A stretch of 62,231 nucleotides of DNA from Chiloscyllium plagiosum (lineage: Eukaryota), in the NCBI RefSeq assembly GCF_004010195.1, contig NC_057718.1, forward strand, positions 90,403,758 through 90,465,988, in the 5' to 3' direction. The position numbers and the translations under genes were made by a program. Position 1 is the first letter of the stretch. The number at the start of each line of letters is the position of its first letter. Positions 8,837-59,800 of the stretch are shown here, piece after piece. Below the pieces are notes generated by a model that was not told the origin of the DNA, did no database searches, and worked only from the letters and a program-made list of their open reading frames with translations.

Positions 8837-9775
8837 ACTCTATTGCTTCCTAATCCACTAGTGCATGTACATATCCAGAACAAAAAGCCTCAAGGTAACC
8901 CTGTACCACTGACCCATTCACTTAGTCACCTATACGACTGACCCACTCACCCATGTGCAGGCAATGTACAATGAAGCAGGTGTGCCAAATGCCTTGTTCA
9001 GCACTAACTACCTGTGACTCCCCTTTCAAGGAACTATGCATCTGCACTCCTAGGTCTCTTTGTTCGGCAAAACTCTCCAGGACCCTACCATTATCTCTAT
9101 AGCCCTGATTTGCCTTATCAAAATGTAACACTTCCCATTTATCTAACTTAAACTCCATCTACTACTCCTCGGCCCTTTGGCCCATCTACTCAAAGTCCAA
9201 TTGCACTCTGAGATAACCTTCTTCACCGTCCACTACACCACTAACTTTGGTGTCATCTGCAAACTTACTAACTACACCTCCCATGTTCACATCCAAGGCA
9301 TTTATATAAATGTCAAATACCCAGCACCGATCCTTGTGACACACCACTGGTCACAGGTCTCCAGACTGAAATACAACCCTCTATAACCACCCTCTCTCTC
9401 CTACCTTCAAGCCAATTTTGTATCCAATTGCATAGGTCCCCCTGGATTCCATGTGATCTAACCTTGTTAACCAGTCTACAATGAGGAACCTTGTCAAATG
9501 CTTTGCACAAGTCCATATACAACATCTACTGCTCTGCCTTCCTTGAACTTCTTTGTCACATCTTCAAAAACTTCAATCAAGTTAGTGAGACATGATCTCC
9601 CATGCACAAAGCCATTTTGATATCCCCTAATCAGTCCTTGCCTTTTCAAATGTATGGAAATCCTAGCTCTCAGAATCCCCTCCAACAGCTTATCCACCAC
9701 TGACGTCCGGCTCACTGGTCTAGAGGTCTCTGGCCTTTCCTTACAACCTTTCTTAAATAATGGCATAACATTAAT

Positions 9776-10098
9776 GGGCGGCACGGTGGCACAGTGGTTA
9801 GCACTGTTGCCTCACAGCGCCAGAGACCCGGGTTCAATTCCCGCCTCAGGCGACTGACTGTGTGGAGTTTGCACGTTCTCCCCGTGTCTGTGTGGGTTTC
9901 CTCCGGGTGCTCCGGTTTCCTCCCATAGTCCAAAGATGTGCAGGTCAGGTGAATTGGCCAAGCTAAATTGCCCGTAGTGTTAGGTAAGGGGTAAATGTAG
10001 GGGTATGGGTGGGTTGCGCTTCGGCGGGTCGGTGTGGACTTGTTGGGCCGAAGGGCCGGTTTCCACACTGTAAGTAATCTAATCTAATCTAATCTAAT
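9776..10098 (+). mobile_element. Full-length HE1/V-SINE nested in CR1
   Basis: Near-identical to 8517-8836; CR1 resumes on both sides. Confidence 0.95.
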
Positions 10099-10957: not shown

Positions 10958-11595
10958 ATAGAACATTACAGCACAGTACAGGCTATTCGGCCTTCAATCT
11001 TGCGCCAACCTGTGGAACCAATCTGAACCCTATCTATCCCTATACTATTACATTTTCATCCATATGTCTATTCAATCATCATTTAAATGCCTTTAAATTT
11101 GGCGAGTCTACTATCGTCGAAAAATGTGGTGCTGGAAAAACACAGCAGGCCAGGCAGCATCCGAGGAACAGGAGACATTTCGGGCATAAGCCCTTCTTCA
11201 GGAATCCTGCAGGCAGGCTGTTCCACGTCCCTACTACTCTCTGAATAAAGAAACTACATCTGATACCTGTCCGATATCGATTATCCCTCAATTGCCCCCT
11301 CGTGCTAGCCATCACCATCCCAGGACAAAGGCTCTAACCGTCCACCCTATCTAACCCTCTGATAATCTTCTATGTCTCAATTAAGTCTCCTCTCAACCTT
11401 CTTCTCTCTAATGAAAACAACCTCAAAACCCTCAGTCTTTCCTCGTAGGACCTTCCCTCCATACCAGGCAACATCCTAGTAAATCTCCTCTGGACCCTTT
11501 CCACAGCTTCTAAATCCTTCCTATAATGCGTTGACCAGATCTGTACACAATACTCCAAGTGCAGCCGCACCAGTGTCTTGTGGAGCTGCAGCATA
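10958..11595 (-). mobile_element. CR1 3' fragment (second subfamily) nested in CR1
   Basis: ORF 11370-11594(-): LVRLHLEYCVQIWS...RFTRMLPG; tail next to a (TA)n tract. Confidence 0.88.
11116..11205 (-). mobile_element. Miniature single-arm PLE, family A
   Basis: Homologous to the 3' module at 48300-48400; ends at cttcttcaggaat; interrupts the CR1 tail. Confidence 0.82.
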
Positions 11596-12721: not shown

Positions 12722-14110
12722 ATGTAGGATGTGGACGTCGCTGGCTGGGCCAGCATTTATTGCCCGTCCTTAGTTGCCCCTTGAGAAGGTGGGGGTGAAC
12801 TTTCTTCTTGAACTACTGCAGTCCACCTGCTGTAGGTTAACCCACAATGCTGTGAGGGAGGAAATTCCAGGATTTCGATCCAGCGACAATGAAGGAACGG
12901 TGATATATTTCCAAGTCAGGGTGGTGTGTGGCTTTGAGGGGAATTAGAAGGTGGTGGTGTTCCCATGTATTTGCTCCTCGTGTCCTTCCAGATGGATTTG
13001 GTTGTGGATTTGGAAGGTGCTGTCTGTGGATTTTTGGTGAATTTCTGCACTGCATCTTATAGATAGTACACACTGCTGCTACTGAGTGTCGGTGATGGAT
13101 GCTTGTGGACGTGGTGCCAATCAAATGGGCTGCTTTGTCCCAGATGGTTTCAAGCTTCTTGAGTGTTGTTGGAGCTGCACTCATTCAGGCAAGTGGGAAG
13201 TATTCCATCACACTCCTGACCTGTGCCTTGTAGGTGATGAACAGGCTTTGAGGAGTCAGGAGGTGAGTTACTCACCACAGCATTCCAAGCCTCTGACCTA
13301 CTCTTGTCGCCATTGCGTTTATGTGGTGTGTCCAGCTGAGTTTCTGGTTAATGATAACCCCAAGGATGTTGACAGTGGGGGATGGTAACACCATTGAATG
13401 TCAAGGGGTGGTGGTTAGAGTGCCTCTTATTGGTGCTAGTCATTGCCTGGCATTTGCGTGGAGCAAATGTTACTTGCCACTTGTGAGCCCAAGCCTGGAT
13501 ATTGTCCAGGTCTTGTTGCATTTTAACATGGACTGCTTCAGTGTCTGAGGAATCACGAATGGTGCTGCACATTGTGCAATCATCGATGAACATCCCCACT
13601 TCTGACCTGATGGAGGGAAGGTCATTGGTGAAGCAACTGAAGATGGTTGGGCCGAGGACACTATCCTGAGGAACTTCTGCCGTGATGTCCTGGAGTTGAG
13701 ATGACTGACGTCCAACAACTCGAGAGTTTGCCCCTCTGATACCCATTGATTCCAGTTTTGCCAGGGTACCTTGACAACACACTCAGGTAACTGCAGCCTT
13801 ATTGTCAAGGGATGTCACTCTCACCTCCCCTCTGGAATTCAGCTCTTTTGTCTACGTTTGAACCAAGGCTGGAATGAGGTCAGGAGCCGAGTGGCCCTGG
13901 CAGAACCCAAACTGAGTGTCACTGAGCAGGTTATTGCTGAGCAGCTGCTGCTTGGTAGCACTGTTGGCCCACAGCAACTCATGGGTGCCCAGTCCTGACT
14001 GTCTAGATCTGTTCGAAGTCTGTGCCATTTAGCACAGTGATAGCGTCACACAGCACGATGGGGGTTATTCTCAGTGTGAAGGTGGGACTTTGTCTCCACA
14101 AGGACTGTGT
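12722..14110 (-). mobile_element. CR1-group LINE family 2, RT to 3' end
   Basis: EVPQDSVLGPTIFSCFTNDLP...GMFIDDCT...WQVTFAP; 3' end ...gggcaataaatgctggcccagccagcgacgtccacatcc. Confidence 0.88.
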
Positions 14111-17908: not shown

Positions 17909-18279
17909 AACAAAAACAGAAATTGCTGGAGAAACTCAGCAGGTCTGGCAGTATCTGTGGACCGAAAACAGAGACATTGAGATGTACAGCACAGAAACAG
18001 ATCCTTCGGTCCAACCCGTCCATGCCGACCAGATATCCCAACCCAATCTAGTCCCACCTGCCAGCACCCGGCCCATATCCCACCAAACCCTTCCTATTCA
18101 TATACCCATGCATTTTAAATGCTGTAATTGTCCCAGCCTCCACCACTTCCTCTGGCAGCTCATTCCATACACACACCACCCTCTGAATGAAAAAGTTGCC
18201 CCTTAGGCCAGTGACCCTTCTTCAGAGCTTTAGTGAAGAAGGCTTACTGGACTCAAAATATTGACTCGATCTTCACTTT
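17909..18279. mobile_element. Miniature fold-back PLE, family C, interrupted by a CR1 tail
   Basis: Centre ccagtgacccttcttcagagctttagtgaagaaggcttactggactcaaaa; TSD accacattgctacgg / atcacattgttatgg (17894-17908, 18280-18294). Confidence 0.75.
17975..18208 (-). mobile_element. CR1 (HER1-like) 3' tail
   Basis: Homologous to 3660-3895. Confidence 0.88.
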
Positions 18280-20104: not shown

Positions 20105-20270
20105 TGATGTGGAGATGCTGGTGTTGGACTGGGTTGTACAAAGTTAAATGTCACATAACACCAGGTTATAGTGCAACAGGTTTATTTGGAAGGATAGCTT
20201 TACAGCTCCGAAAGCCGATGCTTCCAAATAAACCTGTTGGACTATAACCTGGTGTTGTGTGATTTTTAAC
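20105..20270. mobile_element. Miniature fold-back PLE, family B
   Basis: Inverted arms; TSD aacagggcgaaa / aacagggtgaaa (20093-20104, 20268-20279). Confidence 0.86.
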
Positions 20271-30684: not shown

Positions 30685-30820
30685 CTGCAGAAGAGTTAGA
30701 CCCGACTGGAAACGTTGACTCTGTTCCTCTCTCCACAGATGCTGCCCAGACTTGCTGATTTTCTCCAGCACTCTCTGCTTTTATTTCAAGCCTTCAGAAA
30801 CTGCAGTGTTGTACTTCTTT
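30685..30820 (+). mobile_element. Old PLE 3' module, C-like
   Basis: ctgcagaagagttagacccgactggaaacgttgactctgttcctctctccacagatgctgcc: degenerate HHR plus shared downstream motif. Confidence 0.6.
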
Positions 30821-33984: not shown

Positions 33985-35096
33985 ATGACAAGTTCAATTC
34001 TCCCCTGTGTTTCTCAATGCCCTACAAACTCAAATTTAGCAATAACTTCTACACTGACTATATTAGTTATGCTGCATAATTCAAATGTTTGCTTGATTTG
34101 TTATTATTGAGGCAACCAAATGATTTCAGGTGAACAAGACCCTGAAATGCAATGTGTGTGCTATGCATAAATATAACCTTTGTATTGGTAAATGTGAGGT
34201 CACGGGAATAAGTAAGTGATGTATTGCTGGTGTTTAAATACAAAACCACGCATAAACTCTTTTTTGATTAAGGAATCTAAATACATGTTAATGTTACAGG
34301 TGAAGATTATGAAGAAAAAGCATTAAATGCTGCAACACATTATGAAGAATGAATTTTCTGCCTGCAAATAGAACTCTCAAATGACAACCACACATTATCC
34401 TGGTTTAATTTGTATCTCCCCAGTTTAATCCATCTGTTGTCTCATCATCAAGTACTGAGGGAATGTTAAATCGACTGATTAAACTAATCAAATTTTTTTT
34501 CTTTAATATAAAGTTTGGTGAATTGACATTGGAGGAGCTCCGTTGTTGTGTGGGTGAAATAAACTCTCAAAGGAGTAGTGTTCCGTTTTCGAGAACACCC
34601 ACGTCATTGTAGAGTGAGATCCGGTAAACAATCTTCTGAAGCTCTGTGGCGTAATTGGTTTTCCAGAGTTCAATACAACAGCATCCATTTAGTAGACTGC
34701 TGGAGTAAAATATAACAGAGTTTATCTCCTATCAGTATTGGCAAAGTAATGAATTTTGGACACAGAGCACTGTGGCTTGTTCAACTGAATCTGATCTAAA
34801 ATAAATACCATCATATTCAGGGTCACCCGATGCTTTGGTTTCTTTCACAGCAAGTTATGAAAAGTTGTGTGAAGTTTGCCTTTGGTTTACTGTGATTTAT
34901 GCAACTTGCTGCAACTCTGAGAATTGGGTTTCAAGAGTGACTGAGCAGGAGTTGAATTGGATGGATCAATACTCACTTTGCTCTCCTTGTGCAGGTTTAA
35001 TGGTCACCCTTAGCAGCTGCTCAGTATGTGCTGGGCTACACAGTGGCATCCTGTTCCCCTCATTTGCAGGAGAAAGAAACTTAGAGTAAATCTACT

Positions 35097-35222
35097 CAGA
35101 GTCATAGAGTCGTAGAGATGTACAGCACGGAAACTGACCTTTCACTCCAACTTGTCCATGTCGACCAGATATCCTAAGCTAATCTCGTCCCATTTGCCAG
35201 CATTTGGCCCATATCCCTCTAA
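35097..35222 (-). mobile_element. CR1 (HER1-like) 3' tail, target of the PLE palindrome
   Basis: agagtcatagagtcgtagagatgtacagcacggaaac... Confidence 0.85.
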
Positions 35223-35315
35223 GGAGAAAGTGAGGTCTGCAGATGCTGGAGATCAGAGCTGGAAATGTGTTGCTGGAAAAGCGCAGCAGGTCAGGCAGCA
35301 TCCAGGGAACAGGAG

Positions 35316-35351
35316 AATCGACGTTTCGGGCATAAGCCCTTCTTCAGGAAT
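35316..35351 (-). ncRNA. Mirror-image hammerhead motif, family A
   Basis: Exact reverse complement of 35353-35388. Confidence 0.78.
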
Positions 35352-35352
35352 G

Positions 35353-35388
35353 ATTCCTGAAGAAGGGCTTATGCCCGAAACGTCGATT
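35353..35388 (+). ncRNA. Minimal type I hammerhead ribozyme motif, family A
   Basis: AUUC CUGAAGA A GGGC UUAU GCCC GAAA CG UC GAUU; predicted cleavage after C35384; helix I weak. Confidence 0.78.
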
Positions 35389-35844
35389 CTCCTGTTCCCT
35401 GGATGCTGCCTGACCTGCTGCGCTTTTCCAGCAACACATTTCCAGCCCATATCCCTCTAAACCTTGGTCCTGATGGAATGCATCCCAGAGTGCTGAAAGA
35501 AATGGCAGAAGTTATAGTAGAAGCGTTAGTGGTAATTTACCAAAATTCACTGGATTCTGGGCAGCTCCCGGCAGACTGGAAGACTGATATGATATTTGAT
35601 ATTATTGTCACATGTTCTCAAGTACAGGAGTACAGTGAAAGTGCAGACGCCACCACACAAGACACCATCTCAGGTACAGGTATCTAGGCACAGAATCTTA
35701 AGAACAAGGTAGAAAAAAAGAACAAAGTTAAAAGTTAAACATAGCATTAATTGTAGTACAGTACGAAATACGGCTAAATGTTACACATTTCAGACCTCCT
35801 TCGTTTTAAGTAAAAAATAAAGAAACAAAGCTGAAGAGGAACCA

Positions 35845-36170
35845 TGGGTGGCTCAGTGGTGAGCACTGCTACCTCACAGCGCCAGGGACCTGGGTTCAAT
35901 TCCAGTCTCGGGTGACTATCTGTGTGGAGTTTGCACATTCTCCCTGTGTCTGTGTGGGCTCCTTTGGGTGCTCTGGCATCCCCCCACAATCCAAAGATGT
36001 GAATTGGCCAGGCTAAATTACCCATAGTGTCACAGGGATGTGCAGGCTAGGATCATTAGTCATGGAGATGGGAAAGGGGGGGGGGGGGGGGGGGGGTCTG
36101 GATGGGATGCTCTTTGGAGGGTCAGTGTGTACTTGTTGGGCTGAATGACCTGTTTCCACACTGTAGGGAT
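35845..36170 (+). mobile_element. HE1/V-SINE with a poly-G tract
   Basis: A/B boxes and V core. Confidence 0.88.
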
Positions 36171-37388
36171 TTGATGAAACTTGAAATGTTACAGTCTTTC
36201 TTAAATGCTTAACCACAATGGGATTGCACTTTAAGGAATCACTGGGAGTCCATGCTGAGGCCAAGCGATCCACCATGCCAGCCTGAGAGTCTGCCACGCT
36301 GGCCTGCAAGTGTGATATGCAAAGCTGAAAGGAGTCAACACCCTCCATTGTCAGTGGCCAGCAGATTGCCCTACAAAAGGGTATACTGTGGTGTTGGTGG
36401 TCATTTTCCACAACAAGCTTGCATCCCAGTTGAATGGCAGCATGTTCAAGCCCTCGTACAGGATGTTCTTATAAAATACCCAAACGCTCGTGCCCAAGAA
36501 AAGCAAAGTGAAGATGGCACAAGAATACCAGAGCACATGATCAAGAGAATTCAAGCACAAATTCTTAAGCTGTGTCTAAAATTTCTCAGTGTTTTGTGTT
36601 GGTTCAACAAGGCCATCATTCAAGTGCTGACCTGCTTTTCTTGGTGCCCTCCAGTCCCACTTTTCCAGAGGGAATGAAATCCCCGCATTCAGTCAGATTC
36701 ACAGCGGATGTGAACCTGCACCCAGAAGCTGAGGCAAAAGTCTCCCTTTGATGTTATGCTTGAGATTGCCAAACACAGCCGTAGTTTTCAAACGCATTTT
36801 GACAGAATACCAGACACACAGATTTAGTAAAGGATGTATTTAACAAATTAAAACATGTAAAGCAGCGCTACCCAGTAGAGAAAAGGTCTGCACCGAATTA
36901 GCAGTGAGATGGCTGCCAAATAATTACTGCAAAATTGAAACTGGCAACTTGGGGAGAACTGACTAGAGTTCAACAACAACTTCAATCTCCTCATCCACAG
37001 AGCTTAGCGCCTGGCCAGACAGCTGATACTTGGTGACGTGCAGCAAATGCAGAATAATTGCGAAGCAAAAATTGAACTCAATAAAGAATGCACTGCATTC
37101 TGTGAAGGAATGTATGGCTTCGAGATGGGCAAAACGCAAGGGATTGGCACGAGGTAGTGAGGCTTAAGGGGACAGTGCAGGCAATGATTGCCTGAATAGT
37201 CTTCATCTGCATCCGTAACACTCCTGGGATTATGGGATATCATTTCAGCTTCACGGCACAGATTAAAAAGACATATGCATCTCGATATGCAGCCCTGCCG
37301 GGAGTGGGAAAGGTTTATGGCGTGTGAGAAACTTGGTGATCTTGTAAAGGGAAGAGAACGATCAGAGGTTAAAGTCCAAATTTCCAAA

Positions 37389-46659: not shown

Positions 46660-48425
46660 CCGTTATCTGTGAAGCCCCCACCACCCGTTTCTACCTCCTA
46701 CCAAAGATTCACAAACCTGCCTTCCCTGGTCGACCAATTGTCTCAGCCTACTCCTGTCCCACTGAACTCATCTCTGCATTGATTGACACCGTCCTGTCCC
46801 CCTTCACCCAGGAACTCTCTACCTACTTTCCGGACACCACCTACACCCTCCACCTTCTCCAAGATTTTTGTTTCCTCGGCCCCCAACACCTCATCTTCAC
46901 CATGGACATCCAGTCCCTCTACACATCCAGCCCTCCATTTCTTTCTCTCACACTGTCCCAACCAGTACCCTTCCACCGATACCCTCATCCACCTGACTGA
47001 ACTGGTCCTCACCCTTAACAACTTCTCCTTCCAATCATCCCACTTCCTCCAGACGAAAGGGGTAGCCATGGGCCCCCACATGGGTCCCAGTTATGGCTGC
47101 GTCTTTGTCGGGTATATGGAACAGTCCATCTTCCACAGCTATACCGGTACCATCCCCCATGTTTTCCTCCGCTACATCAATGACTGTATCGGTGCTATCT
47201 TGTGCTCCCATGAGGAGGTTGAACAGTTCATCAATGTCACCAATACATTCCACCCCTACCTCAAATTCACCTGGACCATCTCATACACCTCCCTCCCCTT
47301 CCTGGACCTCTGCATCTCTATCTCTGGCGACCAATTAACCACGGACATATACTACAAACTCACCAACTCTCACAGCTATCTGGACTACACCTCCTCCCAC
47401 CCTGCCTCCTGTAAAAACATCATCGCTTATTCCCAATTCCTCCGCCTCTGCCACATATGATCCCGAGATGACCAATTCCACCTTAGAAAATCCCAGGTGG
47501 CCACCTTCTTCCAACTTCGCAATTTCTCTTCCGACATGTTTGACAATGACCCCTAGCACATCTCCTCCACTTCCCACACCACTGCCCTTGAACCCCACCC
47601 CTTCCAACAGAACTAGGACAGAACGCCCCAGTCCTCATCTTTTACCCCACCAACCTTTGCATACATCACATCATTCTCCGGCATTTCCGCCACCTACAAA
47701 CGGACCCCACCACCAGAGATTTCCCCCCTCACCTCCGTCCAAGGCCCCAAAGGATCTTTCCACATCTGACAGAAATTTACCTGTACCTCCACCCATGTCA
47801 TCTACTGCATCCGTCACACCCGATGTGGTCTCCTCTACATCAGGGAGACAAGACACCTACTTGCAGATCAGTTCAGAGAACATCTCTGGGACACCTGCAC
47901 CAACCAACCCCATCCCCCCATGGCTGATCACTTCAACACCCCCTCCCATTCCACCAAGGACACGCTGGTCTGAGCCTCCTCCATTGCCAAATCCTTACCA
48001 CCCGATGCCCGGAGGAAGAACGCCTCATATTCCGCCTTGGGACTCTGCAACCACATGGCATCAATGTGTATTTCAACAGTTTCCTCATTTCTCCTCCCCC
48101 ACATTATTCCAATCCCAAGCTGCCAACTTGGCACCACCCTCCTGACCTGTCCATCACCTTTCCCATCTCTCCGCTCCACCCTCCTCTCCAAGCTATCACC
48201 TTCTCTCCCACCTCCATTTACCTATCGCATTCTTAGCTACCTTCCCTGCAGCCCCACCCCTCTCCCATTTATCTCTCAGCCCTCCGGCCCACAAGCCTCA
48301 TTCCTGATGAAGGGCTTATGCCCGAAATGTCGATTCGCCTGCTCCTCGGATGCTACTGACCTGCTGTGCTTTTCCAGCACCACACTCTCGACTCTGATCT
48401 CCAGCATCAGCTGTCCTCACTTTCT
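46660..48425 (+). mobile_element. Long PLE family A (Neptune-like): RT, GIY-YIG and 3' HHR module, frameshifted
   Basis: RFYLLPKIHKP..PGRPIVS, FTMDIQSLYT, QTKGVAMG, FLRYIND, FTCTSTHVIYCIR..RCGLLYIRET; HHR at 48300-48335. Confidence 0.92.
48300..48335 (+). ncRNA. Hammerhead motif in the PLE 3' module
   Basis: AUUC CUGAUGA A GGGC UUAU GCCC GAAA UG UC GAUU. Confidence 0.72.
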
Positions 48426-48700: not shown

Positions 48701-49670
48701 GTTAAAAATCACACAACACCAGGTTATAGTCCAACAGGTTTATTTGGAAGCACTAGCTTTCGGAGCACTGCTCCTTTGTTGTGGAGTACAAGATCATAAG
48801 ACACAGAATTTATAGCAAAAGTTTACAGTGTGATGTAACTGAAATTATATATTGAAAAAGTCCTGGATTGTTGGTTAAGTCACTCATCTTTTCGAATGAT
48901 CGTGTTGGTTTCAGTTCTTTCATACGTAAATTCCAGAACTTCCTTTAAAAGTTACATTCTCACGTGAACTTTAGCAATAGGTGCCAAGTCAGCCCAGATA
49001 ATGCACTGAAGGTGTGAGGTGCCCTGTGTGAGGCCGTCTGTGCCACAATGTTCAGACTGATTCTAATTTAAAAAGGGGATTTACAGAATCATACATGGAT
49101 TCATGCAGTTTTTGAGCAAAATAAAATATAATTCTGCAAGTACAAATTCAACCCACAAACTGGGTGTGTGTGTGTGTGCACGTGGGCATGTGGGTGTGGG
49201 GGTGCATGAGTGTCTGTGAGAGAGTGTGTGTATGTGTATGTGTGTGAGTGGGACTGGAAAGGGGTATAAGTCTGTGAGAGGGTGCATGTGTGTGCGAGTG
49301 TGAGTATGTACGTGTGAGCGTCTGAGACAGAGCTTGTGTATGAGAGAGGGTCTGTGTGAATGTATGGGTCTGTAGGAGTGTGTGTGTGTGTAATGCAATG
49401 AGGTCCCCTGTAGTGTGACATGAACCCAGGGTCCCAGTTGAGACCATCCCCATGGGTACCGAACTTGGCTATCAACCTCTGCTCGGCCACATTGCGTTGT
49501 TGCCTGTCTGAAGTCCACCTTGGAGGAGGTTCACCCGGAGGTCTGAGGTCATATGCCCCAGACCATTGAAATGTTCTCTGATTGGGAGGGAACACTCATG
49601 ACTGGCGATTGTTGTGCAGTGTTCATTCATCCATTGCTATAGCCTCTGCTCGGTATCGCCAGTGTACCAT
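48701..49670 (-). mobile_element. Long PLE family B: GIY-YIG C-terminus, CA-rich 3' UTR, 3' module
   Basis: WYTGDTEQRL..WMNEH...LPIREHFNGLGH...AEQRLIAKFGTHGDGLNWDPGFMSHY; ends gatttttaac. Confidence 0.88.
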
Positions 49671-50924: not shown

Positions 50925-51052
50925 GGAGAAAGTGAGGTCTGTAGATGCTGGAGATCAGAGCTGAAAATGTGTTGCTGGAAAAGCGCAGCAGGTCAGGCAG
51001 CATCCAGGGAACAGGAGAATCGACGTGTCGGGCATAAGCCCTTCTTCAGGAA
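50925..51052 (-). mobile_element. 128-bp single-arm PLE family A unit
   Basis: Perfect TSD ccaatttaccccag (50912-50925, 51053-51066); begins ttcctgaagaagggcttatgccc on -. Confidence 0.9.
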
Positions 51053-54006: not shown

Positions 54007-54137
54007 GCAAAAGTGAGGACTGCAGATGCTGGAGATCAGAGATGCTAGATTAGGGCCTTTGCCTGAAACGTCGATTTTCCTACTCCTCAGATGCTGCCTG
54101 ACTTGCTGCGCTTTTCTAGCACCACTCTAATCTAGAC
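54007..54137. mobile_element. Miniature PLE family A: inverted tail plus arm
   Basis: Degenerate TSD tactttataaaaaaatgg / tactttctaaaaatgg (53989-54006, 54138-54153). Confidence 0.8.
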
Positions 54138-56075: not shown

Positions 56076-56114
56076 TTTCCTCCTCAAAGAATAGATGGGA
56101 TGTGGTTCATCAGG

Positions 56115-56524
56115 GCGGAAGTTGGGTACTGCAGATGCTGGAGATTAGAGTCAAGATTAGAGTGGTGCTGGAAAAACACAGCAGATCAGGCAGCATCCGA
56201 GGAGCAGGAAAATCGACGTTTCGGGCAAAAGCCCTTCATCAGGAATGCGAACGTCAATTTTCCTGTTCCTCGGATGCTGCCTGACCTGCTGTGCTTTTCC
56301 AGTACCACTCTAATCTAGACTCTGATCTCCAGCATCTGCAGTCCTCACTTTTGCTGCTGGAGATTAGAGTCAAGATTAGAGCGGTGCTGGAAAAGCACAG
56401 CAGGTCAGGCAGCATCCGAGGAGTAGGAAAATTGACATTTCGAGCAAAAGCCTTTCATCAGACATCTGAGGATGCTGCCTAACCTGCTGTGCTTTTCCAG
56501 CACCACTCTAATCTTGACTCTGAA
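56115..56524. mobile_element. Four-arm PLE family A array (two fold-backs)
   Basis: Arms in -,+,-,+ order; outer TSD gttcatcagg (56105-56114, 56525-56534). Confidence 0.87.
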
Positions 56525-57144
56525 GTTCATCAGGACCTAGGCATTTTCAGCCAGTAACTCCAGCAACTTATTCTGACCCCTTGCATGTAAATTTCCTGAA
56601 TTCCTCCCTCCTTCCCATTTCCACTGCCTCACTCAAGAAGGAGGTTTTTAAGAGGCTGGAAGATGAATGGATCAAGGGACGGAGCTTTTTGAAGGGGAAC
56701 GCCTGAGTTTTGGGCGGGGGGGAGGGCTGACGGCCAGATTTATTTTGGGGAGAAGGTGAGAGGTTGGCTTTGGCAATTATCAAACGTCTCGGGTGAAGTA
56801 GAATCGGGCCCAATGGTTGTGGAGGCAGTCTGAATGAAGGCGATGATGGCGGTGAGGCTGATAGGCTGGAGAATCCACCTCCATTCACTGGGACATTAGC
56901 CATGCCATTGCAGTGAATGTCAGGCCTTCACACATACTCTTGTGAGGACAGACATGTTGTTGGCATCACACTGCTCCTTGAGAAAAGTTCGCCAGTTTTG
57001 AATTGAGTATTTACGAGGTTTCTGGAGGACCTAACTCTCTCAAAAGGTGGGATTTTCCTGTACTATGTGTTCCCTGCTGTTACGGGATTGAGTTTTCTTT
57101 CTTCAGTCAGTCCTATCACATGCTATTTAGTTCATAAACATTGC

Positions 57145-58277
57145 GACTACAAAGCCAAGGACTCCCATAGCTACCTTCACTACAGTTCGTCACACCCCAC
57201 ATCCTGCAAGAACTCCAGTCCATTCTCCCAGTTCCTTCGCCTACGTTGCATCTGTTCGGATGATACCAAACTTCCAAAACAATGCTGCTGACATGGCTTG
57301 CTTCTTCCATGACTATGGTTTCCCACCCACTGTGGTTGACAGGGTGCTCAACCACATCCAACCTATCACTCACGTTTCCGCCCTTGCCCCTTCCCATCAC
57401 TCACAACAGAGAGATCAGGTTTCCCTTGTCCTCACTTTTCATCCCACCAATCTCTGCATTCAGCAGATCATTCTCCGCCATTTCAAACAACTCCAGTAGA
57501 ATGCCACCACCAAACACATCCTCCCCTCACTGCCCTGGTCTGCATTTTGCAGGGATCATTCCCTCTGGGACACTCTAGTTCATTCCACAACCACCAACAT
57601 CAACCACTTTTCCATTGGCACCTCCTGACGTAACTGTAGAAGGTGCAACACCTGCCCCTTCTCCTCCTCCCTGCTCACCATCCAAGGGCCGACACAGTCT
57701 TTCCAGGTGAAGCAACATTTCACCTGTACATCCCCCAATCCTGTGTATTGTATTCGCTGCACCTAATCTGGCCTACTCTCCACTGGAGAAACCAGACGCG
57801 GACTGGGTGACCGCTTGGCGGAATACCTCCAGTCTGTACACAAACATGACCCCCTGACCTTCCCATAGCTAGTTATTTTAACACTATGTCCTGCTCACGT
57901 GCCCATGTGTATGTTCGCGGGATGCTGCAGTGCTCCAGTGAATCACAGCACAGACTAGAGGAACAACATCTCATCTTCAGACTAGGTACTTCACAGCCTT
58001 CTGGGCTCAGTATTGAGTTCAACACTTTCAGATTGTGAACCCATTCTTTCCCTTTAACCTCTTTTCTCTCCCAGCACTCCAAACTACCCCCCTACCCCAC
58101 TGCCCCCCACTGTAGTATAAATGCTGCCCCTCTCCACACTTCACCAGCTCTGATGATAGGTCGGTTAGACTCAAAATGCTAGCTTGCTCCCTCTCCATGG
58201 ATATTTCTGACCCGCTCTGATCACCGGCATTTGTTGTTTTCAATACAGATTCCAGCATCTGCAGTAATTTGCTCCTA
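57145..58277 (+). mobile_element. Long PLE, C-like: RT C-terminus, GIY-YIG and 3' HHR module
   Basis: YKAKDSHSYLHYSSSHP...SQFLRLRCICS; HFTCTSPNPVYCIRC; LEEQHLIFRLGT; ctgatgataggtcggttagactcaaaa at about 58150. Confidence 0.88.
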
Positions 58278-58315
58278 TATTCTAGTTATGAAGCTGTACA
58301 TAATTTCCATTATTG

Positions 58316-58714: not shown

Positions 58715-59800
58715 GCAGTCAGGAAGCACTTCAGAGGTCCAGGACTTCCAGGTGACCGCCCTCCAAGCAGACGCTGACAGCCAAGGTTGGTACCCGTGGG
58801 AAAGGCCTCAACCAGGACCTTGGGTTCACATCACACTACAGGTGACCCCACTAAACACACACACATACACACACTCACGGACACACACACACTCATGCAC
58901 ACGCACACACACACACACACTCACAGACACACACTCACGGACACACACTCACGGACACACACACACTCACACACACACTCACGGACACACACACACACAC
59001 ATGCACACACACATATATGTTTGTGGGATGAATGTGTCCTTGCACAATTACATTTTATTTTGCTCAAAAACTGCATGATTCCATGTAAGATCCTGAAAAT
59101 TCCCTTTTTTAGATGAGAATCAGTCTGAACATTGGGGCACACACACACTCATGCACACACACACTCACGCACACACACACACACACTCACAAGCACACAC
59201 ACACACTCACAGGCACACACACTCTCATGCACACACACACTCGCACACACACACATGCACACACACTCACGGACACATACACACACACACACTCACGGAC
59301 ACACACACACTCACATGCACACACACATATATGTTTGTGGGATGAATGTGTCCTTGCACAATTACATTTTATTTTGCTCAAAAACTGCATGATTCCATGT
59401 AAGATCCTGAAAATTCCCTTTTTTAGATGAGAATCAGTCTGAACATTGGGGCACAGACGGACAGACTTTAACCTCACACCTTCAATGTACTATCTGAGCT
59501 GACATGCCACCTATTGTTAAAGTTCATTTGAGAATGTAACTTTTAAAAAAGTTATGGGATTTATATATGAAAGAACTGAAACCAACATGGTCATTCTAAA
59601 AGATGAGAGACTTAACAAACAACCCTGGTCATTTTCAATATATAATTTCAGTTGCATCACACTGTAAATGTTTGCTATGAATTCTGCGTGTTACAATCTT
59701 ATTCTCCACAACCACCTGATGAAGGAGCAGTGCTCCAAAAGCTAGTGCTTCCAAATAAACCTGTTGGACTATAACCTGGTGTTGTGTGATTTTTAACTTT
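58715..59800 (+). mobile_element. Long PLE family B 3' part with internal tandem duplication
   Basis: Homologous to 48701-49600; HHR at 59713-59747 with GAAA changed to AAAA. Confidence 0.88.

Follow-up and report, generated by a model that had tools for sequence, protein, structure and literature searches.

The palindromic insert at positions 35223-35444 of the Chiloscyllium plagiosum DNA analyzed here can be assigned with high confidence, from its sequence, to the stubs of endonuclease-bearing Penelope-like elements (PLEs). The analyzed DNA, hereafter called the window, is a single stretch of 62,231 nucleotides. The broader account, in which the insert is a dead and promoter-less by-product of the retrotransposition of such an element, is likely as well, and the palindrome itself is most probably functionless.

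The core of this 222-bp insert is an inverted repeat formed by two PLE end modules, a left arm on the minus strand (35258-35351) and a tail-less right arm on the plus strand (35353-35446). As an earlier note on this DNA had claimed, arm-to-arm comparison shows 94 bp of complementarity with no mismatch around a single base at 35352 (G on the plus strand, C on the minus strand), for a palindrome of 189 bp overall. When the whole window was searched for perfect arms with a spacer of less than 40 nt, the second-longest measured 45 bp. An RNA copy of the palindrome is predicted to fold into a 93-bp stem with a 3-nt loop, and the fold z-score is -27, with none of 200 shuffled sequences being equally stable. 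The insert is lopsided, in that a 35-nt unpaired PLE tail (35223-35257, minus strand) adjoins the left arm only. The left arm starts 4 nt above the hammerhead core, or 6 nt above it if the center and the next base are counted as templated by the parent.

The 16-mer at 35207-35222 is identical to that at 35445-35460, and this pair is the only direct repeat found at 34500-36200. The dinucleotide GC at 35445-35446 serves both as the last two nucleotides of the right arm and as the first two of the second 16-mer, and thus the element itself has arms of 92 bp plus a 2-nt microhomology. The left 16-mer lies within an older dispersed repeat (about 35090-35222), which has five further copies in the window. 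Because the 16-mer is single in each of these paralogous host repeats, the perfect 16-bp target-site duplication (TSD) asserted previously is a true one. The same holds for the claim of intact CpGs: all eight in the palindrome are preserved, whereas other family arms mostly read TG or CA at one or more of the four columns. The host repeat continues for 3 nt past the right TSD, and 5 nt past it the flank switches to other sequence; the repeat had been shortened already before or during the insertion. The right flank at 35466-35561 is 73% like 2869-2964, a segment that adjoins a reverse transcriptase (RT) frame.

A longer, decayed copy belonging to this PLE family lies at 46662-48425 on the plus strand, where an RT and C-terminal GIY-YIG remnant is followed by a pseudo-LTR (pLTR), a hammerhead (48304), and a tail. 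Its coding remnant is broken by frameshifts and stops. The frame at 46960-47457 has up to 80% identity to shark proteins, and tblastn aligns homologues with RT and GIY-YIG on 46662-47976; two of these, P0039 and P0059, have both RVT_1 and GIY-YIG domains. Pfam and PDB searches of the decayed pieces returned no match, and the identification comes via these homologues. Downstream of the ORF remnant, the pLTR end at 48300-48425 is 86% identical to the palindrome arm (blastn). Canonical PLEs are defined by an RT with a C-terminal GIY-YIG domain (Craig et al., 2021, PMC8557442), and the PLE origin suggested in the earlier note is supported by the finding that the same end module closes the 46662-48425 remnant.

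PLE insertions are described as carrying an inverted, 5´-truncated copy, a one-sided tail of 30-40 bp, and a TSD (Craig et al., 2021, PMC8557442; Arkhipova et al., 2013, PMC3846280). We find the complete set here, namely a family with RT and GIY-YIG, a pLTR hammerhead, an inverted copy with a tail, and a TSD, and thus the palindrome represents a known type of insertion in a very short form. It shares with the EN+ PLE units in these two papers the head-to-head inverted copy, the junction palindrome, the tail at one end, the TSD, the pLTR hammerhead, and a parent with RT and C-terminal GIY-YIG. It differs from them in that the unit is reduced to the terminal 130 nt and its arms enclose no ORF, and in that its TSD is 16 bp rather than the 8-10 bp of the rotifer examples.

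All comparisons among copies were limited to this one 62-kb window. A blastn search with the palindrome arm gives 22 matches at 14 places, and the exclusion of two weak matches (8313 and 17955) leaves 12 places for this family (family A), which comprise five simple inverted pairs, one four-armed cluster, and six single arms. Family-A arms end at only a few positions: 10 of 20 at the same tail end as the left arm of the palindrome, 9 of 20 about 35-37 nt earlier, where its tail-less right arm stops, and one in between. A second family (family B), unrelated to family A in sequence except for the core, follows the same one-tail plan in seven inverted pairs (6043, 15122, 20143, 27074, 28036, 37385, and 61252) and has long copies at 48701-48814 and about 59560-59800. 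The tail is found on exactly one arm in all 12 simple pairs (five of family A and seven of family B), an outcome with a chance of 0.5^12 = 0.0002 if the arms chose freely. TSD-like repeats of 9-16 bp flank 13 of the 16 loci tested, among them a perfect 13-bp TSD at the 6043 pair. The TSD finder was run without a chance control, and matches of 7-8 bp at two further loci were not counted as TSDs; one locus had none.

Several other copies deserve brief description. A solo tailed copy at 50925-51052 (minus strand) is 97.7% identical to the left arm and has a perfect 14-bp TSD; it lacks an inverted arm, and in its core the GAAA box is changed to GACA. A solo tail-less copy at 11122-11205 (minus strand) has a G just before ATTCC, which is possibly a cap-derived base, and no TSD was found for this copy. 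The cluster at 56105-56534 holds four family-A arms enclosed by a single 10-bp direct repeat. Arms of two different subfamily variants abut head to head at 56246/56250, and the cluster could represent either a nested insertion or a single event that used two templates. Pieces of another end module, which is family-A-like downstream of the hammerhead, occur at 30690-30790 and 17923-17961. Outside the window, a 26-nt pattern detected no family copies in public metagenome and viral contigs; 27 contig loci retrieved with a 21-nt pattern matched the arm over only 19-26 nt and were dropped as chance matches.

How the mirror image arose is a separate question from what the insert is. The centers of the pairs vary, with some arms separated by one base, some meeting without a spacer on a self-complementary AT or CTAG (two pairs), some joined through microhomology, and some separated by filler. 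Because the centers differ, the mirror must be built anew at every insertion. The reach of the arms is also informative. Relative to its tailed partner, the tail-less arm is longer toward 5´ in six of the 12 pairs, by about 24-70 nt at 54050, 6043, 27074, and 28036 and by 5-6 nt at 20143 and 61252. It is equal in three (the 35352 palindrome, 17642, and 15122) and shorter in three. In the six pairs of the first class, each arm contains sequence missing from its partner and could not have been copied from it, which excludes a single fold-back cDNA for these pairs as they now stand, unless a later deletion across the center, which could also yield non-nested arms, has intervened.

We consider the chance slightly better than even that, as these junctions suggest, the stub was made from two separately primed cDNAs that were run to the 5´ end of the RNA and joined. 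The PLE protein would cut the target with a 14-16-nt stagger, the spacing recorded by the TSDs. Both free 3´ ends would then act as primers, each for a separate cDNA templated by the 5´ portion of the element RNA, a step modeled on in vitro work with an anole element. One cDNA would begin at the tail end and the other 35-37 nt further in, at the two fixed ends observed among the arms. The cDNAs, about 130 and 92 nt in length, would extend to the 5´ end of the RNA, a few bases above the hammerhead core, which is probably the transcription start given the clustering of arm ends there. Finally, the 3´ ends of the cDNAs would be joined head to head and filled in. Each arm would then represent a cDNA read inward from its own copy of the TSD and begun at one of two sites, and pairs with no spacer on AT or CTAG are as expected of two annealed 3´ ends.

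The principal alternative, a lesser but substantial possibility, derives the same PLE stub from one self-priming cDNA that folds back, with the endonuclease cutting at the tail-less site and asymmetric centers arising by later deletion. Self-priming is the published reading of junction palindromes (Arkhipova et al., 2013, PMC3846280), and the short hairpin of the parent has its loop at the junction site. The arms are nested or equal in six of the 12 pairs, and the 35352 palindrome, with its identical nested arms, is fitted equally well by a fold-back. Moreover, the arms of the 27074 pair have in common a 2-nt insertion that is absent from the other pairs; such private variants in both arms are natural for a fold-back, whereas two cDNAs would have to share one RNA or source locus as their template. 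Against a fold-back, the junction predicted by the native hairpin (a 4-nt GGAA spacer) is seen in none of the five family-A pairs; the center here is 1 nt, and two pairs have none. The six non-nested pairs include the little-diverged 27074 (arms identical at 71 of 72 positions) and 6043 (perfect 13-bp TSD), where a later deletion would have to be invoked, and solo copies have the same 5´ end, as exemplified by the 51052 copy, which shares this start in the absence of an inverted arm.

The reading with two primed cDNAs has partial precedents. The protein of the anole Poseidon element PAc nicks and extends both target strands in vitro, initiates reverse transcription at two points, one at either end of the tail and both a short way downstream of the hammerhead, and has been given a dimer model (Frangieh et al., 2024, PMC11167929). 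These properties match the arrangement described here, whereas the PAc ORF begins inside the hammerhead and we see no such frame in the arms. The inverted arm is left unexplained in the available portion of that report. Twin priming by LINE-1 likewise involves cDNA primed by both target ends, a discrete TSD of 12-18 bp, microhomology at the second priming site, and end-joining at the inversion junction (PMC11702581). It differs in that the L1 arms are adjacent, almost non-overlapping parts of the RNA, whereas here one and the same stretch is represented in both arms, and there are two fixed start sites.

A more general proposal, to which we give somewhat less than an even chance, is that PLE insertion is routinely two-ended. 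A dimeric protein would make one cDNA per target strand, each from its own tail-bounding start site, and when priming occurs on the 5´ copy of these sites both cDNAs would run off the capped 5´ end and be joined. It is also a possibility that new stubs arise from outward, single-arm transcripts of stubs in which the start site is retained. If true, one two-ended rule would account not only for the inverted pLTR and the one-sided tail but also for the mini-palindromes, and it could be tested by counts of junctions in shark genomes, where such pairs are numerous. Our literature search, with most subscription papers, Repbase, and Dfam outside its scope, found no description of these shark stubs and no proposal of two-ended PLE priming.

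The 5´ ends of the arms are of interest in this regard. Eight of 17 short family-A arms, one solo copy among them, start 3-6 nt above the core, and the other nine start further downstream. An origin of these ends by ribozyme cutting was rejected, because the predicted cut is located about 32 nt further downstream. Long copies carry a TATA-like run about 30 nt above the start of the short arms. Specifically, three family-A copies have (A/T)TTTAT at -37/-36, with short arms beginning at -3 to -6, and two family-B copies have TAT(A/G)AAT at -40, with short arms beginning at about -7 to -9. A third family, represented by a second decayed RT and GIY-YIG element at 57010-58280 (plus strand), has TATAAAT at -34 above its decayed hammerhead core at 58150. 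The family-A run is a weak TATA with a shuffle P of 0.01-0.02 for each copy, values that come from three homologous copies and a test made after the fact. The offset between TATA and core shifts with the family, which is the behavior expected of a promoter and its start site. At the putative start, the parent sequence also resembles an initiator. Given the after-the-fact test and the lack of independence among copies of a family, we regard the runs as a lead. Promoters in pLTRs are known from other PLEs (Arkhipova et al., 2013, PMC3846280).

The junction base invites a related thought, in that an extra, cap-derived G has been reported for L1 (PMC11702581). The junction C matches the parent base, and the G could alternatively be a copied cap. 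A cap origin of the center G is possible and is inseparable from a complement of the parent C.

The earlier note described mirror-image hammerheads, with CTGAAGA 5 nt from the center on both strands. The motif does start at 35357 (plus) and 35347 (minus), and each strand carries one minimal type I hammerhead (35357-35384 on the plus strand, predicted cut after C35384; 35320-35347 on the minus strand, predicted cut after C35320). Any one transcript, however, contains one hammerhead and its antisense rather than two hammerheads, and we therefore rejected an in-cis dimer of two ribozymes. The architecture comprises CUGAAGA, a bulged A, a 4-bp stem II, GAAAC-GUC, and a palindromic ACGU with no loop III, while helix I has 3-4 pairs around a U-U mismatch. 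A descriptor for this motif has 11 matches in the window, nine of them within the two families, compared to 0-2 in 20 shuffles. Rfam at its gathering threshold gives no match across the window, and no hammerhead family is among 18 weak matches at 35100-35600. Some of the latter are to microRNAs, the best being MIR6136 with 56.9 bits against 99, and a microRNA identity was dropped because these matches reflect the hairpin alone.

With its CUGANGA/GAAA/NUH core, bulge before stem II, palindromic 15.2-16.2, and short helix I, the motif has the features of a minimal hammerhead (Cervera and De la Pena, 2014, PMC4209133). It shares with the motifs of that paper the intact core, the unpaired base before stem II, G10.1-C11.1, the palindromic 15.2-16.2 without loop III, and the short helix I, and it differs in having a stem II of 4 bp rather than 7-8. 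Schistosoma is described there as having pairs of hammerheads on opposite strands 100-700 bp apart, whereas the motifs here are exactly complementary and separated by 10 nt. The part of that paper available to us makes no mention of sharks.

In read-through RNA the hairpin would bury the ribozyme, as proposed previously, and this proposal holds up in silico: a fold compatible with the hammerhead is 58-60 kcal/mol worse than the hairpin, and a transcript from either strand reaches the antisense arm first. As single motifs, minimal PLE hammerheads fail to cleave (Cervera and De la Pena, 2014, PMC4209133), and the anole PLE hammerhead requires the protein of the element, while insertion in vitro can proceed without this ribozyme (Frangieh et al., 2024, PMC11167929). 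Because such hammerheads barely cleave alone or without the element protein, there would be little ribozyme activity to sequester.

Of the ten pairs compared, only the 35352 palindrome is free of mismatches. This perfection, together with the retention of all CpGs, places it among the youngest in the window. At the mutation rate of 7e-10 per base per generation reported for the epaulette shark (PMC10587355), the probability of observing no differences in 108 site pairs is 0.47 after 5 million generations. The 95% upper bound on the age is about 20 million generations, or 12-15 million with a CpG mutation rate 5-10 times higher, and any conversion between the arms would make the bound looser still. 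The description of the insertion as very recent is thus overstated, since zero differences allow up to about 12-20 million generations.

It had further been suggested that Dicer or ADAR acts on the hairpin and that the parent PLE is thereby silenced. We find this suggestion unsupported, given the absence of a host-gene domain in the frames scanned and the poor cleavage by minimal PLE hammerheads, and consider it improbable that the hairpin is a functional source of small RNAs. Read-through RNA would be expected from the predicted fold to form the 93-bp stem, Penelope small RNAs have been described from both rotifer and fly (Arkhipova et al., 2013, PMC3846280), and lizard Penelope repeats are hyper-edited (PMC5625713). 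Nevertheless, a Pfam scan of 140 of the 183 stop-free frames of at least 75 amino acids, which short exons would escape, reveals no host-gene domain, only four RVT_1 matches and one further match below threshold. The stub also lacks the upstream TATA-like region, nothing singles out the 35352 copy among twelve decaying pairs in 62 kb, and editing tends to unwind such duplexes instead of feeding silencing (PMC5625713). Heavy editing is reported for lizard Penelope repeats and a frog palindromic repeat, and hyper-edited sites in the elephant shark are mostly in repeats (PMC5625713). By analogy, a host transcript that crosses the palindrome would probably fold into the hairpin and be edited by ADAR, and it is plausible that such editing would apply to all pairs of this kind and not specially to the 35352 copy.

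Even less probable is a palindromic non-autonomous element, similar to a MITE or a retrozyme, that moves as a ready-made unit. The insert is short, hairpin-shaped, TSD-flanked, and present in multiple copies, as such an element would be. However, its centers vary among copies, its TSD-like repeats range in length from 9 to 16 bp, and its inverted repeat stops short of the left end, leaving the 35-nt tail outside. We thus see neither terminal inverted repeats at both ends nor the fixed TSD length and shared center of a MITE or palindromic DNA transposon. Solo and long copies of the same sequence are also present. Non-LTR retrozymes (bioRxiv 10.64898/2026.07.22.740005) are likewise small, non-coding, related to PLE pLTRs, and equipped with a type I hammerhead, but they are head-to-tail tandems with at least two ribozymes per strand. 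Here the units are head to head with one ribozyme per strand, and no head-to-tail units with same-strand hammerheads were found.

An artefact of assembly or library fold-back is extremely improbable, since the inversion is confined to the element and stops where diverged family copies stop, and since the bounding target duplication is single in paralogous empty sites, even though library preparation can create perfect palindromes and this one is known from assembled sequence.

As a single locus, the palindrome is of little import beyond being a clean example of a described insertion pattern, one that is very common in this genome. The mirror-image stub itself fits that pattern, and the useful aspect is the mechanistic reading that the non-nested arms favor. 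As a class, the stubs are a record of the PLE insertion mode, which the papers cited above call unresolved, and the intact copy supplies exact priming sites and a junction, as well as a template RNA with which in vitro tests can be made. In sharks, such pairs would also provide ADAR with a large supply of double-stranded RNA if they are transcribed. The window also holds more RVT_1 fragments at 255-794, 1934-2584, 9497-9811, and 13351-13782, which are probably LINE remnants.
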